Part shown: in pieces, positions 1 through 23,450 of the stretch | Numbering within the stretch: position 1 is the first letter of the stretch | Layout of the letters: each line of letters begins with the position of its first letter | Source of the DNA: a virus | Virus record (IMG/VR): IMGVR_UViG_3300021509_000009 | DNA: 33,512 bases | Strand: one strand, 5' to 3' | Translations under genes and position numbers: made by a program | The notes under the pieces: generated by a model | What the model saw: the letters and a program-made list of their open reading frames with translations, nothing else | The model's database searches: none | What the model was told of the DNA's origin: nothing

Positions 1-1676
1 GGGTCTTTTTTAGAAGGGTCTCCCGCATCTATACAAGGACTTGTTTCGTTATCATTGACCCATGCCGAACCATTCCATCTGCCATATTGGGATTTCAGGT
101 GGAAATCGCCATAATCGGGGTCTGCAAACAATGGGTCTTCAGAGATATCACCTGTGCCTGCTGATGTTCCATTGTAATTCCCGAGAGAATTATTGTATAC
201 ATCATTATATGAGAGATTTATACTTATTCCACCAATATAGTTAATTCCATATTCTTTATTGCCAGCTATTATGTTATTTTTTATGTTATACACATACACA
301 GGCGTACCAGCCGACGCTGTATTTCTAAGAAGACCGTCGCATGTAATTCCATCCTTTCCATTTCCGTAGATGACATTGTTTATTATATTTGCAGTTCTCA
401 TAACACTATTTTCTGTTCTATCTACCTCTGTTATTATTCCACTCCCCATATTATTATATATTAAATTGTTAGTAACATTGTTTATATTCATTGATGGGTC
501 ACCAAACGCCCAAGTATCATATATACGAATGCCATCGCGTTCACAGTCATGAATAATATTGCCCTTAACAACACTGCCATAAGTCCACATCCATATACCA
601 TAACCATTGTAGACATGTCTAATTATGTTATTTGTAATTGTATTGCGAGGGGAGATACCATAAGGTTGCAGTGCCCATCCCGTAACGTGTTCAATGACAT
701 TGTTGGTAAAAATATTATCGGAACCAGCATTAAATTTTATAACTACACCCGTTCCTCCGTCACGGAATACATTATGTCTGATTGTAGCACGCTCAATATG
801 GCAATCCATAAACACTTTGACATGTTCCACGGTACAATATTGTATTAAATTACTCATAGCATAACCATATTGAAATGCCATATAAACATTGTCTATCAGC
901 AAATCTGAGTATTTTGTATAGGCATCTTCTTTTTCTGGTCTACATCCCCATATCGCAAGATTCGAAGAATAATCCCCTCCCTCACAAGAGAAGCCATGAA
1001 GATACATATCTTCTACTGCTACATAATCGCTAGTTGTTGAAACCCTAATAAGTGAGTTGTTCAATATCTCGGTGGCATGAAGAATGGTTTTATCTTTTCC
1101 TTGACCTCTCAATGTTGTATTGCTTCTATTTATTTGTATAGGGGTGTCAGCATTTGAAAGATTCCATGTCCCTTCTTTTAATTCAACAACTCCCCCTTCT
1201 ACAGGAAGAGAATCTAACGCTGCCTGAATGTCTTCCCCAAGATTTACAGCTATAAGTTCAGATGTGGTAATAGTCCAAACTTTATGGTCTTGCTTGTAGG
1301 GACCTATTGGTGGTTTGTAGTTAGATACTTCTACCTCTATATCCCATGTAGATGTTTTATTTGGAACTTGCCATATGAAAGAACTTGTCTTTGTGTTGTT
1401 TTCTTCATGCGTTTGAAGAACTTCTGCTCCACGCATAACCTCCCAGGTGAAGTTGCAGGTTTCATTTGCCGTTACAGTGAAAGTGATGCTATCTTCTGGC
1501 TGAACCTTGTATACGAGGTCTTGTGGATTATCTTTATTTGTTGGGTTTCCTCCAGTAGAAGACCAATTGGTGATGGATGGTGCAGCGGCACTCACACTCA
1601 CCACCCCAGTCAGTCCTGTAATAAAGATGATACCTATCACGAAACATGCAATAGCAACAAAATTATTTCTTAACAT
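1..1676 (-). CDS. Secreted right-handed parallel beta-helix (pectin-lyase-like/NosD, disaggregatase-related) protein, 3'-partial (>558 aa)
   Basis: Hand translation from ATG at 1676 is open to base 1. It starts with a signal peptide (MLRNNFVAIACFVIGIIFITGLTGVVSVSA-A). It has PbH1-like repeats (GIWMWTYGSVVKGNIIHDCERDGIRIYD) and the C-terminal motif GDISEDPLFADPDYGDFHLKSQYGRWNG..WVND..TSPCIDAGDP typical of Methanosarcinales beta-helix proteins. It is absent from the ORF track because it has no stop in the window. Confidence 0.85.
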   Translation of the reverse strand, partial: MLRNNFVAIACFVIGIIFITGLTGVVSVSAAAPSITNWSSTGGNPTNKDNPQDLVYKVQPEDSITFTVTANETCNFTWEVMRGAEVLQTHEENNTKTSSFIWQVPNKTSTWDIEVEVSNYKPPIGPYKQDHKVWTITTSELIAVNLGEDIQAALDSLPVEGGVVELKEGTWNLSNADTPIQINRSNTTLRGQGKDKTILHATEILNNSLIRVSTTSDYVAVEDMYLHGFSCEGGDYSSNLAIWGCRPEKEDAYTKYSDLLIDNVYMAFQYGYAMSNLIQYCTVEHVKVFMDCHIERATIRHNVFRDGGTGVVIKFNAGSDNIFTNNVIEHVTGWALQPYGISPRNTITNNIIRHVYNGYGIWMWTYGSVVKGNIIHDCERDGIRIYDTWAFGDPSMNINNVTNNLIYNNMGSGIITEVDRTENSVMRTANIINNVIYGNGKDGITCDGLLRNTASAGTPVYVYNIKNNIIAGNKEYGINYIGGISINLSYNDVYNNSLGNYNGTSAGTGDISEDPLFADPDYGDFHLKSQYGRWNGSAWVNDNETSPCIDAGDPSKKD

Positions 1677-16489: not shown

Positions 16490-16617
16490 TGGACGGAGCA
16501 GGAGTCGAACCTGCATTCCCGAACAGATTTATCTCTCTACTCGTCGAAACAAATGTAATATACCGATTTAATTTAAAATGTCTTAGTGTTCGGGTCCTAC
16601 CATTAGATGATCCGTCC
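16490..16617 (-). tRNA. tRNA-like gene with a 63-nt segment in place of the 7-nt anticodon loop; identity undetermined; CCA not encoded
   Basis: Perfect acceptor stem GGACGGA/TCCGTCC plus A73. D arm ATCT-AATGGTA-GGAC. Anticodon stem CGAAC/GTTCG. 5-nt variable region. T arm GCAGG-TTCGACT-CCTGC. Confidence 0.8.
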
Positions 16618-17682: not shown

Positions 17683-17896
17683 ATTTTTTCTTGTTTATTT
17701 TATACCACCATGACTCTTTGTCAATTCCCTCATTATCGTTATAAGTATTATCGCATTCACACATTATTTTTCATTTTTAAAATGCTCGAAGAATTCCAAC
17801 CATTTATCCACCCAGTCTTTCTTCTTACTATCCTCTTTAGTACTTTTCTTTTCTAACTCGGTTGAATCTCTCCGCATAAATCCAGAAAGATCAAAA

Positions 17897-18340
17897 TTAT
17901 ATAATTTCATCTTTCCTACCTTTTCTTTCGTTTCTATCCCATTTCTTATTAGGATAAATAGAAAATTTATCTATCCTACAAACTTTCTCTTCGACCTTCA
18001 CTCTATTCCTCGTTAGAACAACCATCTTAACCTTTCCCGGATATGCCTGCGCACTTATGGCACTTCCAAGGATAAAAACATCCTTACCATATTTTTGCTC
18101 AATCTCTTGCAACTCTTTTTTTCCTTCCTCGGTTGGAAGCACCTCTATTTCGTAAATAAATTCTAACACTCGCCTTTCTTGCATCTTTGCTTGCAATAGA
18201 TAGCCACTTGGATGAACAACCGTTCCATCTTCAAACTTTAATTTATGCGGAGTGCAGTTTATTACTCGTACTCCATTACTCAATTCCATCGGCTCTTTTA
18301 TTACGCCCTCGCCGCTTCGGGCATTATCTTCCCTATTCAT
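17897..18340 (-). CDS. Conserved virus-type protein (N[LC]TPH motif family)
   Basis: VINCTPHKL...HPSG. Has its own promoter and GAGGT RBS. Confidence 0.7.
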   Translation of the reverse strand: MNREDNARSGEGVIKEPMELSNGVRVINCTPHKLKFEDGTVVHPSGYLLQAKMQERRVLEFIYEIEVLPTEEGKKELQEIEQKYGKDVFILGSAISAQAYPGKVKMVVLTRNRVKVEEKVCRIDKFSIYPNKKWDRNERKGRKDEII

Positions 18341-18369
18341 TTTACCTCACTAATACGAAAATAACCCTA

Positions 18370-18388
18370 CTTAAAAAGGATGTGGTCA
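18370..18388 (-). promoter_or_regulatory. Promoter: TGACCACAT box + TATA (TTTTTAAG)
   Basis: Same architecture at four gene starts. Confidence 0.7.
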
Positions 18389-18572
18389 TTATAGTACTTA
18401 TTATTGATACTTACTTTGGGTCAGATATTTCTGGACAGGTCTTTATAGATATTGTCATTTAACAAAATACCTATTATTAGATTTGAATTTTTCTTTTAGT
18501 TTTGAAGCCAAAAAAGCTATGACTGGTATAATGAATAATATAAAATAAATGATAAGTAATTGAAATATTTGG

Positions 18573-18839
18573 TTAGTCATTTTCTACATTATCAATTAGC
18601 ATATTAATAAAATCTTCCGGTCTTTCTGGAAACACCAATAATAAATTTAATCTACCTTTCATAGCTCTTTTTATACCTCTAATAGCTCCTTTTGCTATAC
18701 ATAATAACCATCCTTGATCCCAAAGTTCCATTAGCTCTTTAATGTTCAATTTCTTCCCTATTAGTTTTTTAGCTCCTACTCCCTCTATCGGCTTTTTTAT
18801 ATTGCGGTCGCCGCCTCCCGCCTGTCTCGTTTCTATCAT
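18573..18839 (-). CDS. Hypothetical protein, paralogue of 21763-22038
   Basis: KLNIKELMELWDQGW vs KISIEKLMELWDRGW. Confidence 0.7.
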   Translation of the reverse strand: MIETRQAGGGDRNIKKPIEGVGAKKLIGKKLNIKELMELWDQGWLLCIAKGAIRGIKRAMKGRLNLLLVFPERPEDFINMLIDNVEND

Positions 18840-18869
18840 TTTACATCAATTAACATATTATTTTTACAT

Positions 18870-18888
18870 TATATAAAGGATGTGGTCA
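18870..18888 (-). promoter_or_regulatory. Promoter: TGACCACAT box + TATA (TTTATATA)
   Basis: Box lies 2 nt before the TATA, upstream of ATG 18839. Confidence 0.7.
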
Positions 18889-19474
18889 CTTAAGTACTTA
18901 CCTCTAATCCTTACCCTGTGTATCATCTTCTCTTCTTATATTATATATTTATTATATAATTCCCTCTCTTTTATATTATTATAATATTCCTTTTTATCAT
19001 TGTTAGTAATATAGTTACCATAGTTCTCATAATTTATGTGTTTATACTCCTTATATATTTGTTGTTTTCTGTTGTTATAGTTATGTATGTTTTATAAGAT
19101 AAACACCATCTACAACATTTATGCCCTTCTTTTTAAAAATAAAACCTTAATAACCAATAAAATTAAAATTAAAACTTTAATATCAATCATAAGAAATATT
19201 ATCCTTTTTTATCGCTTTTCATATCATCAACAAACAAATCTATAATCTTTTCATACTAATCATAAATGATGTTATCCTTATCATCCCTGTGTTACTGGAG
19301 TTAATATTTAAGAATTACATGAAGAGGGATAACAAGAGATAATCGGGAGATTGAAATTTTTAATACTAATTATGGAAGTGGGGAATTGCATCAATGACTA
19401 CCTAAAAATTATATCATAATTTGCATTTTGAGCGTGTTCATTGCAATTTTTTTGAGTGGGGTAATATAAAAGTG

Positions 19475-19536
19475 TACCTGAAGAAAAAAATTTTGATGTA
19501 GGGCAAATATGAGTGTCTCATGCAATTCTCAATAAC
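19475..19536 (+). repeat. Dispersed ~60 bp intergenic repeat, copy 3 (divergent partner at ~19416-19463)
   Basis: TACCTgaaGAAAAAAATTTTGATGTAGggcaaaTATGAGTGTCTCATGCAATTCTCAATAAC. The partner's reverse complement ATTACCccactcAAAAAAATTGCAATGA matches copy 1. Confidence 0.75.
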
Positions 19537-19616
19537 ATACACTAAGGTAAACATAAATGTTAAGGATGGTGTATAGGATTAAGATTAATGATAAGTACCT
19601 ATGGTTCTTACTTGAA

Positions 19617-19636
19617 TGACCACATGTTTTTTATAG
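19617..19636 (+). promoter_or_regulatory. Promoter: TGACCACAT box + TATA (TTTTTATA)
   Basis: Upstream of the GGTGAT RBS and ATG 19669. Confidence 0.7.
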
Positions 19637-19668
19637 TCATAGATTATATGGGTGATTGGTGATGCAAA

Positions 19669-19929
19669 ATGAGTACAAAAATAAGAGAAGAAGAGATTGA
19701 ATGCTTTGATGAAGATATGCAGTGGAAGATACACAAAAAAGCTGAATTCAGAAGAATACACAGTGATCGCGTAAAAATTCAGGAACTCGCTAAAAAAGTA
19801 ACAGTTGAGAGCTCTTCATTACTACGAGAACTGGATAATAGGTTAATGGAAAGAGAACTAAGTATTCAAAAAGAGATAACAGCTGATGGCACGAACTTTA
19901 ACGATATACCGGATATAGAATATGAGTAA
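19669..19929 (+). CDS. Hypothetical protein
   Basis: Promoter and RBS present. Confidence 0.7.
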   Translation: MSTKIREEEIECFDEDMQWKIHKKAEFRRIHSDRVKIQELAKKVTVESSSLLRELDNRLMERELSIQKEITADGTNFNDIPDIEYE

Positions 19930-20046
19930 ATATTCATTTTTATTTTACCTTTTAATTTTTTATGTCTAAGACCTATGAAAAATATTGCGTGAGACGCATT
20001 TAGAACATGCACATTAAAATTTTTATGCTTAACCTATATAATTATA

Positions 20047-20110
20047 TACCTCAAGAAAAAAATTTGCATGAGCATGCTTATATGAAGCCATAATACAAAT
20101 TCTACAAAAC
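20047..20110 (+). repeat. Dispersed ~60 bp intergenic repeat, copy 4
   Basis: TACCTcaaGAAAAAAATTTGCATGAGcatgctTATATG...ATACAAATT. Confidence 0.65.
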
Positions 20111-20132
20111 GACAAATATTGAAATATTATAG

Positions 20133-20178
20133 GTAAGTATCTTTAAACCTTACCAAGATGACCACATCATTTTTATAG
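20133..20178 (+). promoter_or_regulatory. Promoter: GGTAAG-N11-CTTACC inverted repeat, TGACCACAT box, TATA (TTTTTATA)
   Basis: Seen directly, upstream of ATG 20211. Confidence 0.7.
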
Positions 20179-20210
20179 TCTTGATTCTTACATGTGATTG
20201 GTGATGTGAA

Positions 20211-20441
20211 ATGGATAAAGAAAGTGGTATATGGGGAATATTAGAAGAAATAGAGAGTGTGGAAGTGGATAGTGAGAAAAGAGAATTAAAGAACATTTGC
20301 GAAGAATTGATGAGAGAAGCAGATAAATTGGATGGAGAGGCAGAGGCAGCAGATTCGATAGAGATGATAGAGCTGCTTGCAAAAGCAGAGGGCATAAGGA
20401 TCGCAGTAGCGAAGATTACGGAGAATATTTTAGGAAAGTGA
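20211..20441 (+). CDS. Acidic helical hypothetical protein
   Basis: Promoter and GGTGAT RBS. Confidence 0.7.
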   Translation: MDKESGIWGILEEIESVEVDSEKRELKNICEELMREADKLDGEAEAADSIEMIELLAKAEGIRIAVAKITENILGK

Positions 20442-20448
20442 TAGAAAC

Positions 20449-20664
20449 ATGAATGAAATAGAAGAGATAATAAGGGATAGAGTAATACTGGAGTTAGAAG
20501 ATTTGAAAAGAGAGCTAAAAAGAGAGTCGGAGAGATTAAAAACAGAAGCTAAGACTTACAGAGAAGATACGATTTGGTCTATCAGAAGACATGATAAAGC
20601 GCAAGGATTAGAAATAGCAATTGAAAGAATCGAAAAAAGAATATTAGAAAAGAGGAATAGATAA
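20449..20664 (+). CDS. Coiled-coil hypothetical protein
   Basis: Follows 20211-20441 in an operon. Confidence 0.65.
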   Translation: MNEIEEIIRDRVILELEDLKRELKRESERLKTEAKTYREDTIWSIRRHDKAQGLEIAIERIEKRILEKRNR

Positions 20665-20757
20665 AATGATATTTAATATTAACATATTTTTATTTTATAT
20701 TTATCTTCTTTTTAGTATAGTATCCTTTATCATTATAGGATTTCTTATCAAATACCT

Positions 20758-21265
20758 TAGAGTTAGATATTGATACTCCTTTATATATATTATATATTAT
20801 ATATTTATTATATAATATACCGATTCCTTTACCATACCTATACCATACATGTTAGATATCCTATACCATATATGATTCCTATACCTATACCTTTACTATA
20901 CCTTTATGATTCTTATACCATATATTATCATGATACCTTTATGATACCTTTACTATACCGATACCTCTAAGATTCATATACCATATACCTTTATGATATC
21001 TTTATGATACCTTTATCTTTAAATATCTATTACCATATACATTACCGATTCCTTTACCTTTAAGATTCCTTTATGTATACTTTTTAATATTTATATACTT
21101 TATACCATGTTGATTCTTATACCATATACTTATCCTTTATCTTTATGATTCTTTTACCTTTTATAATATTTATACCTTATAGAGTTAAGATATTCTTATA
21201 CCTTATACCTATAGATCCTTTATATAATATATATTATAATATATTATATATTATATTATATATAA
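20758..21265. repeat. Origin-like non-coding region: degenerate CTTTATGATAC(C)/ATACC repeats between two pure-AT tracts
   Basis: 11-mer units near 20895, 20930-20950, 20990-21015 and 21140. A/T-only tracts at 20781-20818 and 21219-21265. G-poor plus strand that switches to purine-rich after 21265. Confidence 0.55.
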
Positions 21266-21432
21266 GGAAAGAAGAGAAGAAAAAAGAATAAAATTTTAAA
21301 ATATCTATCTTCTAACTTTTATTAGACACTCCTTATGGTCTATCACCTTAAAAGAAAGAAAAAAAGAGAAAGAAAAAAAAATTATATAAATATTATGGCA
21401 TCTTTGATATGGTGTGGTAGGCTGAGTTCCTC

Positions 21433-21759
21433 CTATTTTATTATTTTTTTTCCGCAATACCGGCACTGGAGAACCTCTTTTGGCTCTCCGGTTTTTCCGT
21501 CATACACTGTTTGCCGCCACTCAAAGCAGTGGCGACCTTTTGAGCAGCGGTACTTCTGCGCAAGCAATGCTTTCATGCACCAGCGCGCCGCAGCGATATC
21601 GGAAACAGAGCGTTCTCGCTGCATTCTTTTGAACTCGTTGCGTATTTCGCTGAGTTCTTCATCACTCAGCTCGCTGTATGCTTTCTTAATCTTCTTCATT
21701 TCGTTTTCGATCTCTTCATCACTTATGACATCTTTTTCTTTGCTCATTTCATTTATCAT
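21433..21759 (-). CDS. Hypothetical protein with C-terminal Cys/His motifs
   Basis: CSKGRHC...CRYC. GGAG RBS. Confidence 0.65.
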   Translation of the reverse strand: MINEMSKEKDVISDEEIENEMKKIKKAYSELSDEELSEIRNEFKRMQRERSVSDIAAARWCMKALLAQKYRCSKGRHCFEWRQTVYDGKTGEPKEVLQCRYCGKKIIK

Positions 21760-21762
21760 CTC

Positions 21763-22038
21763 CTATTTTATTATTACCACATCGATAAATTTCTCATCTT
21801 CTCTATCGTCATCAGCATGAAAGCACTTGAATAGCTTTGCGTGAATATCGAAGAAATCACTTTTTTTCTCTATAATATATGGTGACTCATCATCCATGTC
21901 TATATGCACTGCTATTCCCCATCCCCTGTCCCATAGTTCCATCAGTTTTTCAATGCTTATTTTTCTCTCTATTAACTCCTTTGCCACCGGGTTATTTATA
22001 TTGCGCTCCCCGCTTTGCGCCTCTATTTCTATTGCCAT
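21763..22038 (-). CDS. Hypothetical protein, paralogue of 18573-18839
   Basis: GGAGGTGAT RBS and shared LMELWD.GW motif. Confidence 0.7.
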   Translation of the reverse strand: MAIEIEAQSGERNINNPVAKELIERKISIEKLMELWDRGWGIAVHIDMDDESPYIIEKKSDFFDIHAKLFKCFHADDDREDEKFIDVVIIK

Positions 22039-22052
22039 ATTTTTATCACCTC

Positions 22053-22247
22053 CTATATTCTTATTATTTTATCTCTTTCGCGTGGCGCTACCTCAAGACC
22101 TTTTAGTGCGAGCAAAACTTTGTTTCCTTTACGATCAAGATAATATTCATCTCGATCGCCGTATTCGTTGACTTCTCCATAATACACTACTCTCTTCCCC
22201 CATACCTTCCCGTCTTCTTTACTATACAATTTCACTGTTTGTTTCAT
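22053..22247 (-). CDS. Hypothetical protein
   Basis: GGAGG RBS. Confidence 0.6.
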   Translation of the reverse strand: MKQTVKLYSKEDGKVWGKRVVYYGEVNEYGDRDEYYLDRKGNKVLLALKGLEVAPRERDKIIRI

Positions 22248-22248
22248 T

Positions 22249-22482
22249 TTACATATCGCCTCCTATTATATATCCGTTATCTTCTAATATAAAATTTAAC
22301 TCTCTCAATACTATTTCCAACATCACTCGCGCCCCTCGATCCCACATCTTTATATCTTCATCTTTCCCTTCCTCGATCCATTTTGTTTGTCGTCTTATTG
22401 CATCTTCGATATCGCACCGCAATATTAGCAACATATCTACCAGTCTATCCCTATCTTCTGATTGCATTATTATTTCACTCAT
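22249..22482 (-). CDS. Hypothetical protein
   Basis: Operon packing. Confidence 0.6.
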   Translation of the reverse strand: MSEIIMQSEDRDRLVDMLLILRCDIEDAIRRQTKWIEEGKDEDIKMWDRGARVMLEIVLRELNFILEDNGYIIGGDM

Positions 22483-22500
22483 CTTCCATCATCTCCCTAT

Positions 22501-22998
22501 CTACTGTACTAATCCGCCCACTCCCTTCCTCCCTATCCGGGTTATTAATAGAAAGGTATATTTTGTTTTTCCCTTTCTTTGTACTTTTAAATATAATGCA
22601 TCTTCTGTAAGTCCCGCGTCTTCCAGTAGTTCGTTATCTCCCCATCCTTTCTTCCAACTGAGAATTATTTTATCGCCTTCCCTTAATAAGCTTATTATTG
22701 TTTGCCATACTGCATTATCTTTTGCCCACATGAGGACATACTGTGCTTTATAGAACATGTCTTTCCCGTAAGCTTCTTTTTCGTAATCTACTGGTATCGC
22801 ATATTGCATTTCTGGGAACGGATCATCTTCTTTCTCTTTTATTGCTATTATCTCATTTATATGAAATACCACTGAGTCCGCTTTCTTTAGTGCTTTTATG
22901 TCCATCTTCGTTATCCCTTTCTTCTCTTCCTCTATTACACCATTCAGCTTATTTGTATCCCGCTCGCTGCCTTGCGGTTCTATTATTTCTATTGCCAT
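22501..22998 (-). CDS. Hypothetical protein (start 22998, MAIEII...)
   Basis: GGTGATAAAAAT-ATG context identical to the 22038 gene. Confidence 0.7.
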   Translation of the reverse strand: MAIEIIEPQGSERDTNKLNGVIEEEKKGITKMDIKALKKADSVVFHINEIIAIKEKEDDPFPEMQYAIPVDYEKEAYGKDMFYKAQYVLMWAKDNAVWQTIISLLREGDKIILSWKKGWGDNELLEDAGLTEDALYLKVQRKGKTKYTFLLITRIGRKGVGGLVQ

Positions 22999-23450
22999 AT
23001 TTTTATCACCAATTACCATATTAGATATGCCACTATAAATAACCCGCCGGTCTTAAAGTAAGTACCTTTAGTCTTTAATAATATATATTATCCTTAAATT
23101 TCATTTTGGATACCTCATGTTATCTCTTTTGTAATCATTCACACCGTAGTCTTAGTCTTATCTTTCATTATCTCTTTCTTAAAAGATATGTATGTATTAT
23201 CTCCCTCTTACTTTTTTGTTACTTGTTATTATCTCTTCTATCCCTTTTATCTCCTTCGTGTCGTATAATCCATATTATATGACTGTGTTAGTTTTAGTTA
23301 ATTGTTATAAGTTGGTGTTATCCCTTTTCTTCTTTTTATTAAGTTAAAATTTTGTTATGTTTGTCTATTTATTGACGGTATCTTAAACTTAAATTTAAAT
23401 GACCGATAGTTTTAATACGTCCTACACTCTATATACTAATAGTGATATGA

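Follow-up and report, generated by a model that had tools for sequence, protein, structure and literature searches.

A portable pseudoknot leader, possibly a translational operator, in ANME-1 mobile-element genes

The lambda boxB hairpin, which consists of a 5-bp stem and a GNRA-like pentaloop, acts together with boxA and bacterial Nus factors. The DLP of the alphavirus subgenomic mRNA and the Kozak downstream-hairpin effect concern eukaryotic scanning ribosomes and a hairpin at +27 to +31, with no pseudoknot; we know of nothing comparable described for archaea. In the archaeon Methanococcus vannielii, ribosomal protein L1 reportedly has its own operator in the L1 operon. We examined a window of 33,512 nucleotides (IMG/VR virus record IMGVR_UViG_3300021509_000009), in which four minus-strand genes had been predicted to share a hairpin within their first codons, interpreted as a boxB/nut-like or translational RNA operator or as an exchangeable 5' cassette, with antisense promoters as an alternative.

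The leader and its pseudoknot

The four genes start with a common leader of 17 codons (Table 1). The pattern SSSS-RARGCRGSGA-SSSS matches the window four times, on the minus strand only, against an expectation of 0.00 from 100 dinucleotide shuffles, and the predicted hairpins at 18305-18322, 18804-18821, 22003-22020 and 22960-22977 are therefore real. As originally stated, their four stems (S1 in Table 1) differ in sequence and pair perfectly, begin 18, 18, 18 and 21 nt past the A of the ATG, and are all followed by an A-rich tail. The hairpin exists exactly as described but is only half of the element, as its loop is used in a second helix. Loop positions 5-8 (CGGC, CGGC, CGGG and CAGC) complement four bases located 11 nt past the 3' arm (GCCG, GCCG, CCCG and GCTG), which end the A-rich tail; the unit is therefore a 33-nt pseudoknot. 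It is of the H-type and comprises S1 (4 bp), L1 (4 nt), S2 (4 bp), L2 (GA) and an A-rich L3 of 11 nt.

The S2 helix of copy 4 contains an A-U pair, and codon 18 is Leu instead of Pro. The copy-2 type of knot is also found in L077, on a full-length family-3 gene. Orthologues of copy 3 instead feature S1 helices of GCCC/GGGC, GUAC/GUGC or a 6-8 bp AUCCGA/UCGGAU, and those of copy 4 carry either CCGG/CCGG with the same S2 (L078 and L081) or CCGC/GCGG (L079). BLASTP clustering placed the proteins starting at 18839 and 22038 in one family, and the protein bodies starting at 18340 and 22998 are, as claimed, unrelated to each other and to these two. When region 17800-23100 was scanned against Rfam 15 with cmscan (E ≤ 10), only a weak, unrelated sR17 match was obtained, and preQ1-I (RF00522) was not matched. 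The pseudoknot is previously undescribed and represents a new RNA family.

Table 1 Positions of promoter elements, leaders, pseudoknots and ORFs in the window
Feature	Position	Strand	Details
TGACCACAT box and TATA-like box	18370-18388	-	29-30 nt before ATG of leader 1
Leader 1, ATG and spacer	18323-18340	-	15-nt spacer, purine-rich, C-poor
Pseudoknot copy 1	18290-18322	-	codons 7-17 of ORF 17897-18340
Copy 1 S1	18319-18322 with 18305-18308	-	GCCC/GGGC
Copy 1 S2	18311-18314 with 18290-18293	-	CGGC/GCCG; L3 = 18294-18304
ORF with leader 1	17897-18340	-	147 aa; body family of ~50 homologues, nearly all leaderless
TGACCACAT box and TTTATATA	18870-18888	-	30 nt before ATG of leader 2
Leader 2, ATG and spacer	18822-18839	-	same layout as leader 1
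Pseudoknot copy 2	18789-18821	-	S1 GCGG/CCGC, S2 CGGC/GCCG; codons 7-17 of ORF 18573-18839
ORF with leader 2	18573-18839	-	88 aa; diverged paralogue of family 3
Leader 3, ATG and spacer	22021-22038	-	same layout as leader 1
Pseudoknot copy 3	21988-22020	-	S1 GCGC/GCGC, S2 CGGG/CCCG; codons 7-17 of ORF 21763-22038
ORF with leader 3	21763-22038	-	91 aa, family 3; residues 1-13 predicted disordered
TATA-like box TTATTTATA	23034-23042	-	~35 nt before ATG of leader 4
Leader 4, ATG and spacer	22978-22998	-	18-nt spacer
Pseudoknot copy 4	22945-22977	-	S1 CCGC/GCGG, S2 CAGC/GCUG; codons 8-18 of ORF 22501-22998
ORF with leader 4	22501-22998	-	165 aa

Covariation and coding constraints

In this element and its relatives, 98.8% of pair cells (20 copies) or 98.4% (24 distinct copies) are paired, compared with 83-84% in shuffles, 0/500 of which reach the observed value, and 24-41% in registers slid by 1-3 nt. 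Changes are found on both sides in 5 of the 8 pairs; as the copies are related, these amount to few independent compensatory events, with S1 accounting for roughly five to seven of them and S2 for two to three. Nine S1 helices pair (GCCC, GCGC, GCGG, CCGC, CCGG, GUAC, GUCC, GCUCC and AUCCGA), and so does each of three to four S2 variants. S1 and S2 states are found in all four possible combinations, each with two intact helices although the strands interleave, a result that no single crossover could produce. Three copies carry one mismatch each, located in S1 (L004b) or in S2 (L012 and L032b). S1 measures 4 bp and in a few relatives reaches 5-8 bp, with a constant loop length of 10 nt. Loop and junction bases, like the L3 adenines, are invariant, with L3 following the pattern NNNANAAANAA. 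Two G.U pairs would become C.A mismatches on the opposite strand, indicating that the element is read from the sense-strand RNA. All 15 chance matches to the pattern, obtained from 596 Gb of genomes, fail to pair in both helices. Nested folding energies are unremarkable (z from -0.64 to +0.31), in a setting where ViennaRNA cannot score pseudoknots and the helices are only 4 bp each. A competing local hairpin is possible in L047.

The encoded residues follow the pairing. Radical changes among Ala, Val and Pro accompany changes among Arg, Gly and Cys, a Lys/Asn change accompanies a silent Gly change, and Pro becomes Leu, in step with the helices. The knot draws on codons that are seldom used in this genome (Ala GCS 19%, Arg CGS 12%, Pro CCG 10%), in which GC3 is 23.5%. 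Nucleotide diversity at the three codon positions is.095/.047/.271 in the protein body vs.107/.137/.142 in the knot, which thus has no third-position excess; amino-acid diversity is.26 in the knot,.58 in the spacer and.12 in the body. Selection at the nucleic-acid level and on the sense strand, as proposed, is borne out by the compensatory changes, the G.U pairs, the rare codons and the loss of codon periodicity. Comparison of the copies demonstrates that compensatory changes preserve both helices at a cost to the encoded peptide, and the element very probably acts in cis at the RNA level.

Explanations placing the function elsewhere were weighed against these data. The leader might encode an N-terminal peptide tag (A-x-S/G-G-E-R/G ... 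P) in which RNA pairing is incidental, as canonical copies all keep the knot in frame and Gly-Glu never varies. This is very unlikely, given the radical, pairing-linked replacements of stem-encoded residues, the rare codons, the lost periodicity and an amino-acid diversity in the knot twice that of the body. In addition, amino-acid diversity in knot and spacer compared with the body, together with the missing third-position excess, revealed no purifying selection on leader amino acids; the leader is predicted to be disordered (pLDDT < 50 for residues 1-13 of the predicted structure), is absent from many orthologues and in one case lies outside any ORF. A DNA-level site, be it a palindrome bound by a protein, a cruciform, a site of recombination or, in the tail, an antisense promoter, is just as improbable. 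Some tails do read TTATTTATATT on the opposite strand, resembling a TATA box, and recombination at or near the 3' end of the cassette is clear. Yet four arm sequences in one genome could not be read by a single sequence-specific dimer, G.T pairs become C.A on the other strand, and the bases paired in S2 are not palindromic in duplex DNA. The antisense promoter suggested as an alternative explains neither helix, and it fails for tails such as GTAACAAAAAA, which give no opposite-strand TATA box.

Portability, promoters and leader layout

The suggestion of an exchangeable 5' cassette holds, as the leader is fused to at least seven unrelated proteins and is missing from many orthologues, including those at 16 of 38 family-3 loci. 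In L005 and L004, it stands exactly in place of the ATG of a gene whose L001 counterpart has no leader, and the cassette shows clear recombination at or near its own 3' end. One intact copy, in L074, precedes a Shine-Dalgarno sequence and an ATG outside any long ORF and may be a decaying remnant. Judged by these gene comparisons, the module has passed from one unrelated gene to another, and the proteins can do without it. This mobile element of methane-oxidising archaea has its relatives in Guaymas Basin, among ANME-1 mobile elements whose type is unclear, and the pseudoknot is confined to one narrow clade. The leader lies directly 3' of a mini-tRNA-like fold in L047, L075 and L074.

A TGACCACAT-TATA promoter stands directly before most leader copies in relatives, at a constant TATA-ATG distance of 29-30 nt. 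For leader 4, the usual box is replaced by GACCGGCGGG, which precedes the TATA-like box, and L081 is arranged likewise. Each genome carries two to four copies, at the heads of gene blocks. Copy 3 of the window sits on a gene that comes fourth in its block and lacks a clear promoter of its own. Leaders of the 'a' type have a strong GAGGTGA Shine-Dalgarno sequence, and those of the 'b' type have none. The spacer between ATG and knot consists of 56% A, 25% G, 13% T and 6% C. Its sequence is nearly saturated with changes, yet its length is 15 nt in 19 of the 21 distinct canonical copies, in which the knot consequently starts at +19 from the AUG; the exceptions are copy 4 of the window (18 nt) and L004b (24 nt). 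In divergent relatives, the distance from AUG to knot is 20, 23, 27 or 32 nt.

Candidate functions and known systems

The reading that we prefer, to which we give about an even chance, is that the portable pseudoknot leader is a translational operator for a small regulon. The leader would consist of a short or absent 5' UTR, the AUG, an unstructured, purine-rich 15-nt spacer and the pseudoknot, and within a clade of ANME-1 mobile elements it would head two to four transcription-unit-proximal genes in each genome. Because the TATA box lies approximately 30 nt before the AUG, the UTR is expected not to exceed 10 nt, and the pseudoknot would therefore lie roughly 25-58 nt from the 5' end. Given the reach of the ribosome footprint past the AUG, a knot starting at +19 would coincide with the leading edge of a ribosome with the AUG in its P site, which is why the knot may be read as a translational operator common to the regulon. 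In line with that class, the structure is kept by compensatory change on the sense strand and overlaps or abuts the ribosome-binding region. A trans-acting factor, be it a small ligand or a protein encoded by element or host, would recognise the folded knot by its invariant unpaired bases and would then set the ease with which the ribosome initiates or makes its first translocations, the leader peptide being a tolerated by-product. That the knot controls translation at the start site is put forward tentatively, at slightly less than an even chance.

Other RNA-level mechanisms share part of this evidence. With no regulator at all, the knot might stall a loading ribosome on a nearly leaderless mRNA with the AUG in the P site and so boost or privilege the element's mRNAs in translation, in the manner of the alphavirus downstream hairpin. 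The constant +19 start, a spacer kept in length and not in sequence, the very short UTRs implied by the TATA-ATG distance and the 'b' type leaders devoid of a Shine-Dalgarno sequence are all consistent with such positioning, which is nevertheless unlikely: 'a' type leaders should need no help, divergent copies lie at offsets of 20-32 nt, and the invariant unpaired bases suggest specific recognition instead of a mere obstacle. The knot might alternatively be a riboswitch within the ORF, binding a metabolite or signalling nucleotide and tying the regulon to the state of the cell. Its 33-nt size and its architecture, a stem-loop whose loop pairs with the 3' end of an A-rich tail, resemble preQ1-I, and helices covary around invariant unpaired bases. 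However, no Rfam aptamer was matched even at E ≤ 10, the downstream genes are mutually unrelated and unannotated and so suggest no ligand, the knot cannot mask the Shine-Dalgarno sequence or the AUG, and QueT is absent from the host class; we consider this reading improbable. A co-transcriptional signal of the nut/put or TAR type, with the nascent knot loading a factor on, or acting on, RNA polymerase so that it reads through the terminators of the long leftward gene block, appears similarly improbable. Nearly all copies are promoter-proximal (about +25 to +58 of the predicted transcript), the knot is attached to whichever gene is first after the promoter, and the two to four copies per genome sit at gene-block heads. 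Against this, boxB and boxA features are lacking, a translating ribosome would unwind the knot, the model does not call for a constant distance to the AUG, and we know of no archaeal antitermination RNA. A programmed -1 frameshift stimulator, suggested by the classic combination of an H-type pseudoknot and an A-rich L3, is refuted: none of the 21 copies has an X XXY YYZ heptamer upstream, where a slippery site would lie 5-9 nt from the knot, and in most copies both alternative frames run into a stop within 6-8 codons, leaving a negligible likelihood.

The leader could also belong to a new class of ligand- or factor-sensing RNA switch built to be translated, a 33-nt pseudoknot cassette that can be fused in frame to any gene. 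ANME-1 mobile elements would thereby bring chosen genes under one signal, e.g., the stage of infection, the energy state of the host or a nucleotide derived from defence. This reading is unlikely; if true, no riboswitch-like regulon operator would have been described earlier within coding sequence in archaea or their viruses.

Among known RNAs, preQ1-I (RF00522) is similar in being an H-type pseudoknot of ~33-34 nt in which a short, GC-rich P1 stem-loop pairs through its loop with the 3' end of an A-rich tail, and in which helices covary and unpaired bases are fixed. The loop and tail consensus is different, however, and the element described here lies inside the ORF, 18 nt past the AUG, where it cannot hide the Shine-Dalgarno sequence, and occurs in multiple copies before unrelated mobile-element genes in an archaeal host. 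Downstream of the knots are unrelated hypothetical proteins and no genes for 7-deazaguanine synthesis or uptake. Frameshift pseudoknots of the luteovirus type, which have an A-rich loop 3 triplex, share the topology of two short GC-rich helices with an adenine-rich loop crossing the S1 minor groove; here, a slippery heptamer and an open alternative frame are both lacking, and the knot is located at the very start of the ORF. Like lambda nut, the element is a small folded RNA close to the 5' end of early transcripts and is present more than once per genome. The proposed boxB/nut membership does not stand, as the stem is of 4 bp instead of 5 bp, a 10-nt loop engaged in a second helix replaces the GNRA-like pentaloop, and the element is translated, in an archaeal host. 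Nor is there a boxA, the 15 nt before the element being variable and the A-rich L3 and S2 the only conserved flank. The alphavirus DLP is comparable as a stable in-ORF structure at a set distance past the AUG that acts through ribosome position. The L1 operator is comparable as an archaeal translational operator that lies in a coding region, a few tens of nucleotides past the ATG, and is recognised by a protein as folded RNA. In contrast to that operator, which mimics a 23S rRNA helix and serves autoregulation in single copy, the element described here folds as a pseudoknot and travels on a portable leader that unrelated genes have in common.

A pseudoknot in the first codons of four genes

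The pattern SSSS-RARGCRGSGA-SSSS matches the window four times, on the minus strand and where the original prediction had placed it, against an expectation of 0 (100 dinucleotide-preserving shuffles). As the genome has an overall G+C content of only ~31%, the matches stand out as sharp GC islands. Every match lies inside an ORF, and the fixed position claimed for them is confirmed (offsets of 18, 18, 18 and 21 nt, counted from the A of the start codon). The simple hairpin that had been proposed exists, but represents only half of a pseudoknot, as bases 5-8 of the loop can pair with the end of the tail. The partner strand is formed by the four bases closing the conserved tail, 11 nt past the 3' arm. 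The resulting H-type pseudoknot spans 33 nt and consists, in order, of helix S1 (4 bp), loop L1 (4 nt, RARG), helix S2 (4 bp), loop L2 (GA), the 3' strand of S1, loop L3 (11 nt, pattern NNNANAAANAA) and the 3' strand of S2. The ATG, a spacer and the pseudoknot constitute the leader.

Coordinates of the pseudoknots and associated features in the window and in related loci
Feature	Sequence	Coordinates	Strand	Details
Pseudoknot, copy 1	window	18290-18322	minus	loop 5-8 CGGC; tail end GCCG
Pseudoknot, copy 2	window	18789-18821	minus	loop 5-8 CGGC; tail end GCCG
Pseudoknot, copy 3	window	21988-22020	minus	loop 5-8 CGGG; tail end CCCG
Pseudoknot, copy 4	window	22945-22977	minus	loop 5-8 CAGC; tail end GCTG
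27-nt identity, leaders 3 and 4	window	22021-22047; 22981-23007	minus	GGTGATAAAAAT-ATG-GCAATAGAAATA
TGACCACAT box	window	18380-18388; 18880-18888
TGACCACAT box, reverse-oriented	window	near 19620; near 20170
GGTAT-repeat region	window	20700-21300		~500 bp, non-coding
GGTAT-repeat region	L001	1090-1620
tRNA-like body	window	16490-16617
tRNA-like genes with inserts	L001	6240-6365; 8100-8240
Mini-tRNA-like fold	L047	3912-3966
Mini-tRNA-like fold	L075	690-745
Mini-tRNA-like fold	L074	1558-1612	minus
Variant pseudoknot	L073 (G062:C75)	~1495-1545		S1 GCGG/CCGC
Chromosomal stretch	L074 (G053:C179)	1040-1640		~400 bp

Copies in relatives were gathered by a locator that does not require pairing and by a covariance model of S1. 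Covariation holds for both helices. Among 20 distinct copies, 98.8% of the pair cells are standard, compared with 83.9% in shuffled sets (none of the 500 was as high), and both sides change in five of the eight pairs; sliding the registers by 1-3 nt yields 24-41% standard pairs. With four copies added, one of which has a C.A mismatch, 98.4% of the cells are paired versus 82.9% (n = 24). Further orthologues, fetched via their proteins and not via the motif, feature the S1 variants GUAC/GUGC, CCGG/CCGG (joined to a CAGC/GCUG S2) and a 5-bp GCUCC/GGAGC with a standard loop. The most distant genes of family 3, which comprises homologues of the 91-residue protein encoded at 21763-22038, carry an AUCCGA/UCGGAU stem of 6-8 bp, the loop again being 10 nt, with loop positions 5-8 (GGCG) matched by CGCC 13-14 nt downstream; a competing local hairpin is possible there, and this clade is regarded as supportive evidence only.

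Each of the two S1 states is found with each of the two S2 states, and neither helix is disrupted in any of the four combinations. Since the four strands are interleaved, no single crossover yields all of these combinations. In the sole apparent recombinant (L032b), one S2 pair is broken. The two G.U pairs, found in L012 and L032b, correspond to C.A on the opposite strand and thus point towards the sense RNA as the selected molecule.

As a negative control, 596 Gb of genomes were scanned with a pattern fixing the unpaired consensus only. The scan retrieved a single genuine copy, from a Guaymas bin, and 15 fortuitous hits, none of which pairs in both helices. Across the genomes scanned, the motif is not widespread. 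A match in a 180-residue ORF of a Methanophagales MAG (L053) was rejected as fortuitous: only 3/4 of S2 is paired, and the match is located mid-gene in another frame. Nested MFE folding gave no significant z-scores, the expected outcome for a pseudoknot. A variant in L073 has a loop of only 7 nt and an S2 of 3 bp; it is placed at the 3' end of a 122-residue ORF, 6 nt ahead of the next ATG, and the upstream frame has apparently absorbed its leader.

Selection on the RNA rather than on the encoded peptide

Compensating changes alter the protein, as in Ala-GCG/Arg-CGC versus Ala-GCC/Gly-GGC, Val/Cys, Pro/Arg and Pro to Leu; in another case, a silent GGC/GGG change is paired with Lys/Asn. The codons used in the pseudoknot are rare genome-wide (GCS, 19% of Ala; CGS, 12% of Arg; CCG, 10% of Pro), where GC3 is 23.5%. 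In 14 family-3 orthologues, nucleotide diversity at codon positions 1, 2 and 3 is.095,.047 and.271 in the protein body (amino acid diversity.12),.107,.137 and.142 in the pseudoknot (.26), and.27,.49 and.33 in the spacer (.58). Residues 1-13 have an AlphaFold pLDDT below 50. Set against these values, the reading of the leader as a peptide tag is poorly supported, as is, in view of the G.U pairs, that of the element as a DNA site. In the first codons of genes, RNA structure can take precedence over protein coding, and hence "conserved N-terminal motifs" of viral ORFans may be RNA.

Leader exchange, promoters and related loci

The suggestion of an exchangeable 5' cassette is supported, as at least seven unrelated protein bodies are fused to the leader when all copies are considered. 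The leader is present in 22 of 38 family-3 loci, and the remaining 16 begin directly at the core (MKAKEL...). Nearly all of the ~50 homologues of the copy-1 protein lack it, as do two homologues of the copy-4 protein, which has no relatives among the viral contigs searched. In L005 and L004, the leader stands exactly in place of a gene's ATG; the same gene is second, and leaderless, in the related 55-kb contig L001. A TGACCACAT-TATA promoter is located 29-30 nt ahead of most copies, and the same promoter also serves genes devoid of pseudoknots, including plus-strand genes of the window. The TGACCACAT box is found 2-3 nt ahead of the TATA box and is preceded by a GGTAAGTACTT-like sequence; in relatives, a second conserved block (AAATCTAAC) occurs 8-16 nt past the TATA box.

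Leaders 3 and 4 are identical from the SD through codon 5, while their pseudoknots are unlike at two S1 and two S2 pairs. This pattern looks like a recent gene conversion limited to the 5' part. The 88-residue product of 18573-18839 resembles family 3 as far as the ELMELWDQGW motif and diverges completely beyond it. The same GCGG/CCGC pseudoknot accompanies a full-length member of family 3 in L077, which marks 18573-18839 as a truncated or rearranged paralogue.

The larger genes of the window are archaeal-type (ERCC4 nuclease, primase-polymerase-like protein, RecA-like ATPase, disaggregatase-related beta-helix protein and glycosyltransferases). No matches to 17800-23100 were found by blastn in the phage collection, no Pfam domain scored above threshold in the four leader-bearing proteins and their neighbours, and ARAGORN called no tRNA in the window. 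The sources of the family-3 homologues are Guaymas-type metagenomes and MAGs annotated as Methanosarcinales and Ca. Makaraimicrobium; copies are also present in two genomes of the order Methanophagales. The motif recurs in three related IMG/VR contigs, which are listed as CRISPR-matched ANME-1 mobile elements of type "Unclear", cluster 376_0, from the Guaymas Basin (Laso-Perez et al. 2023, supplementary file 3, PMC9894754). In the window, a region of dense GGTAT/AAGGTAT-type short repeats between pure A/T tracts, which resembles a replication origin, lies between the two gene blocks that carry pseudoknots, and L001 has a similar region. In two tRNA-like genes of L001, the anticodon loop or its vicinity is interrupted by long inserts, a parallel to the odd tRNA-like body of the window.

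In three divergent loci, the leader is directly preceded by a mini-tRNA-like fold, consisting of a 6-7 bp acceptor-like stem around a T-arm-like hairpin, with CCA/CCG and a conserved ATCAGG on its 3' side. ARAGORN called no tRNA at these folds, which could be att remnants, or t-elements setting the mRNA 5' end via tRNA-processing enzymes. The L074 copy, in a Methanophagales chromosome and adjoining a tRNA-Gly gene, keeps all eight pairs, is off the canonical frame, 21 nt ahead of an SD and ATG, and may be a remnant. The stretch, flanked by a host membrane-protein gene and by tRNA-Gly, past which an aIF6-like gene follows, contains the fold, the intact pseudoknot and a 34-residue ORF. It probably represents a scar left by an integrated relative, and links the element to ANME-1 hosts.

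Candidate function and comparison with known systems

Archaeal TATA boxes are located ~26 nt before the transcription start. The UTR would thus measure at most 10 nt; the pseudoknot would begin at +19 from the AUG and occupy a stretch ~25-58 nt from the 5' end. The 15-nt spacer has many purines and few C residues, and its length is kept while its sequence drifts, which would place the pseudoknot at the mRNA-entry edge of the initiating ribosome. Beyond the structure, the selection acting on it and its portability, all of which the comparisons demonstrate, this position and the invariant unpaired bases lead us to propose, tentatively, a candidate translational operator read by one factor. A start-site enhancer acting without a factor would be unlikely, and a riboswitch or a nut/put-like co-transcriptional signal improbable to a similar degree. 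A Foldseek search of the PDB with the moderately confident family-3 model gave no match and offers no clue to an RNA-binding role.

Other candidates were discarded. Frameshifting is excluded by the lack of a slippery site. A K-turn or K-loop is at odds with the C at position 2b and with loop positions 6 and 8, which covary with the tail; several copies are short of G tracts for a G-quadruplex. A CRISPR-repeat mimic is contradicted by the absence of tandem copies and of matches to host arrays in 79 host-class genomes. A single trans RNA complementary to the loop could not pair with all variants, as position 8 is C or G and position 6 is G or A.

Post-transcriptional control is, to our knowledge, almost uncharted in archaeal viruses, and wholly so for the uncultured ANME-1 methane oxidisers. 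The element is a compact 33-nt RNA motif with good covariation support and no Rfam entry, whose small size suits direct probing, binding and structural work. The in-frame cassette and its promoter provide a way for a regulatory RNA to travel; mobile elements of uncultivable archaea offer regulons testable in vitro, and the element could become a portable expression-control part in methanogen genetics.

No relevant family was retrieved from Rfam at E<=10. Pseudoknots, hairpins, promoters and riboswitches go unmentioned in the ANME-1 virome paper, and the literature on pseudoknots in archaeal viruses yielded nothing related and no description of the element. The original observation holds and is extended, and its interpretation is borne out in part: boxB/nut features are lacking. 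The closest architecture is that of the preQ1-I aptamer, but the element neither matches its model nor shares its gene context or SD masking, and no QueT gene occurs among the 79 host-class genomes. The nearest archaeal functional precedent is the Methanococcus L1 operon, where the L1 operator lies inside the coding region. The element constitutes a new RNA family, though of a general kind already known, and its in-ORF, cassette-like deployment is unusual.
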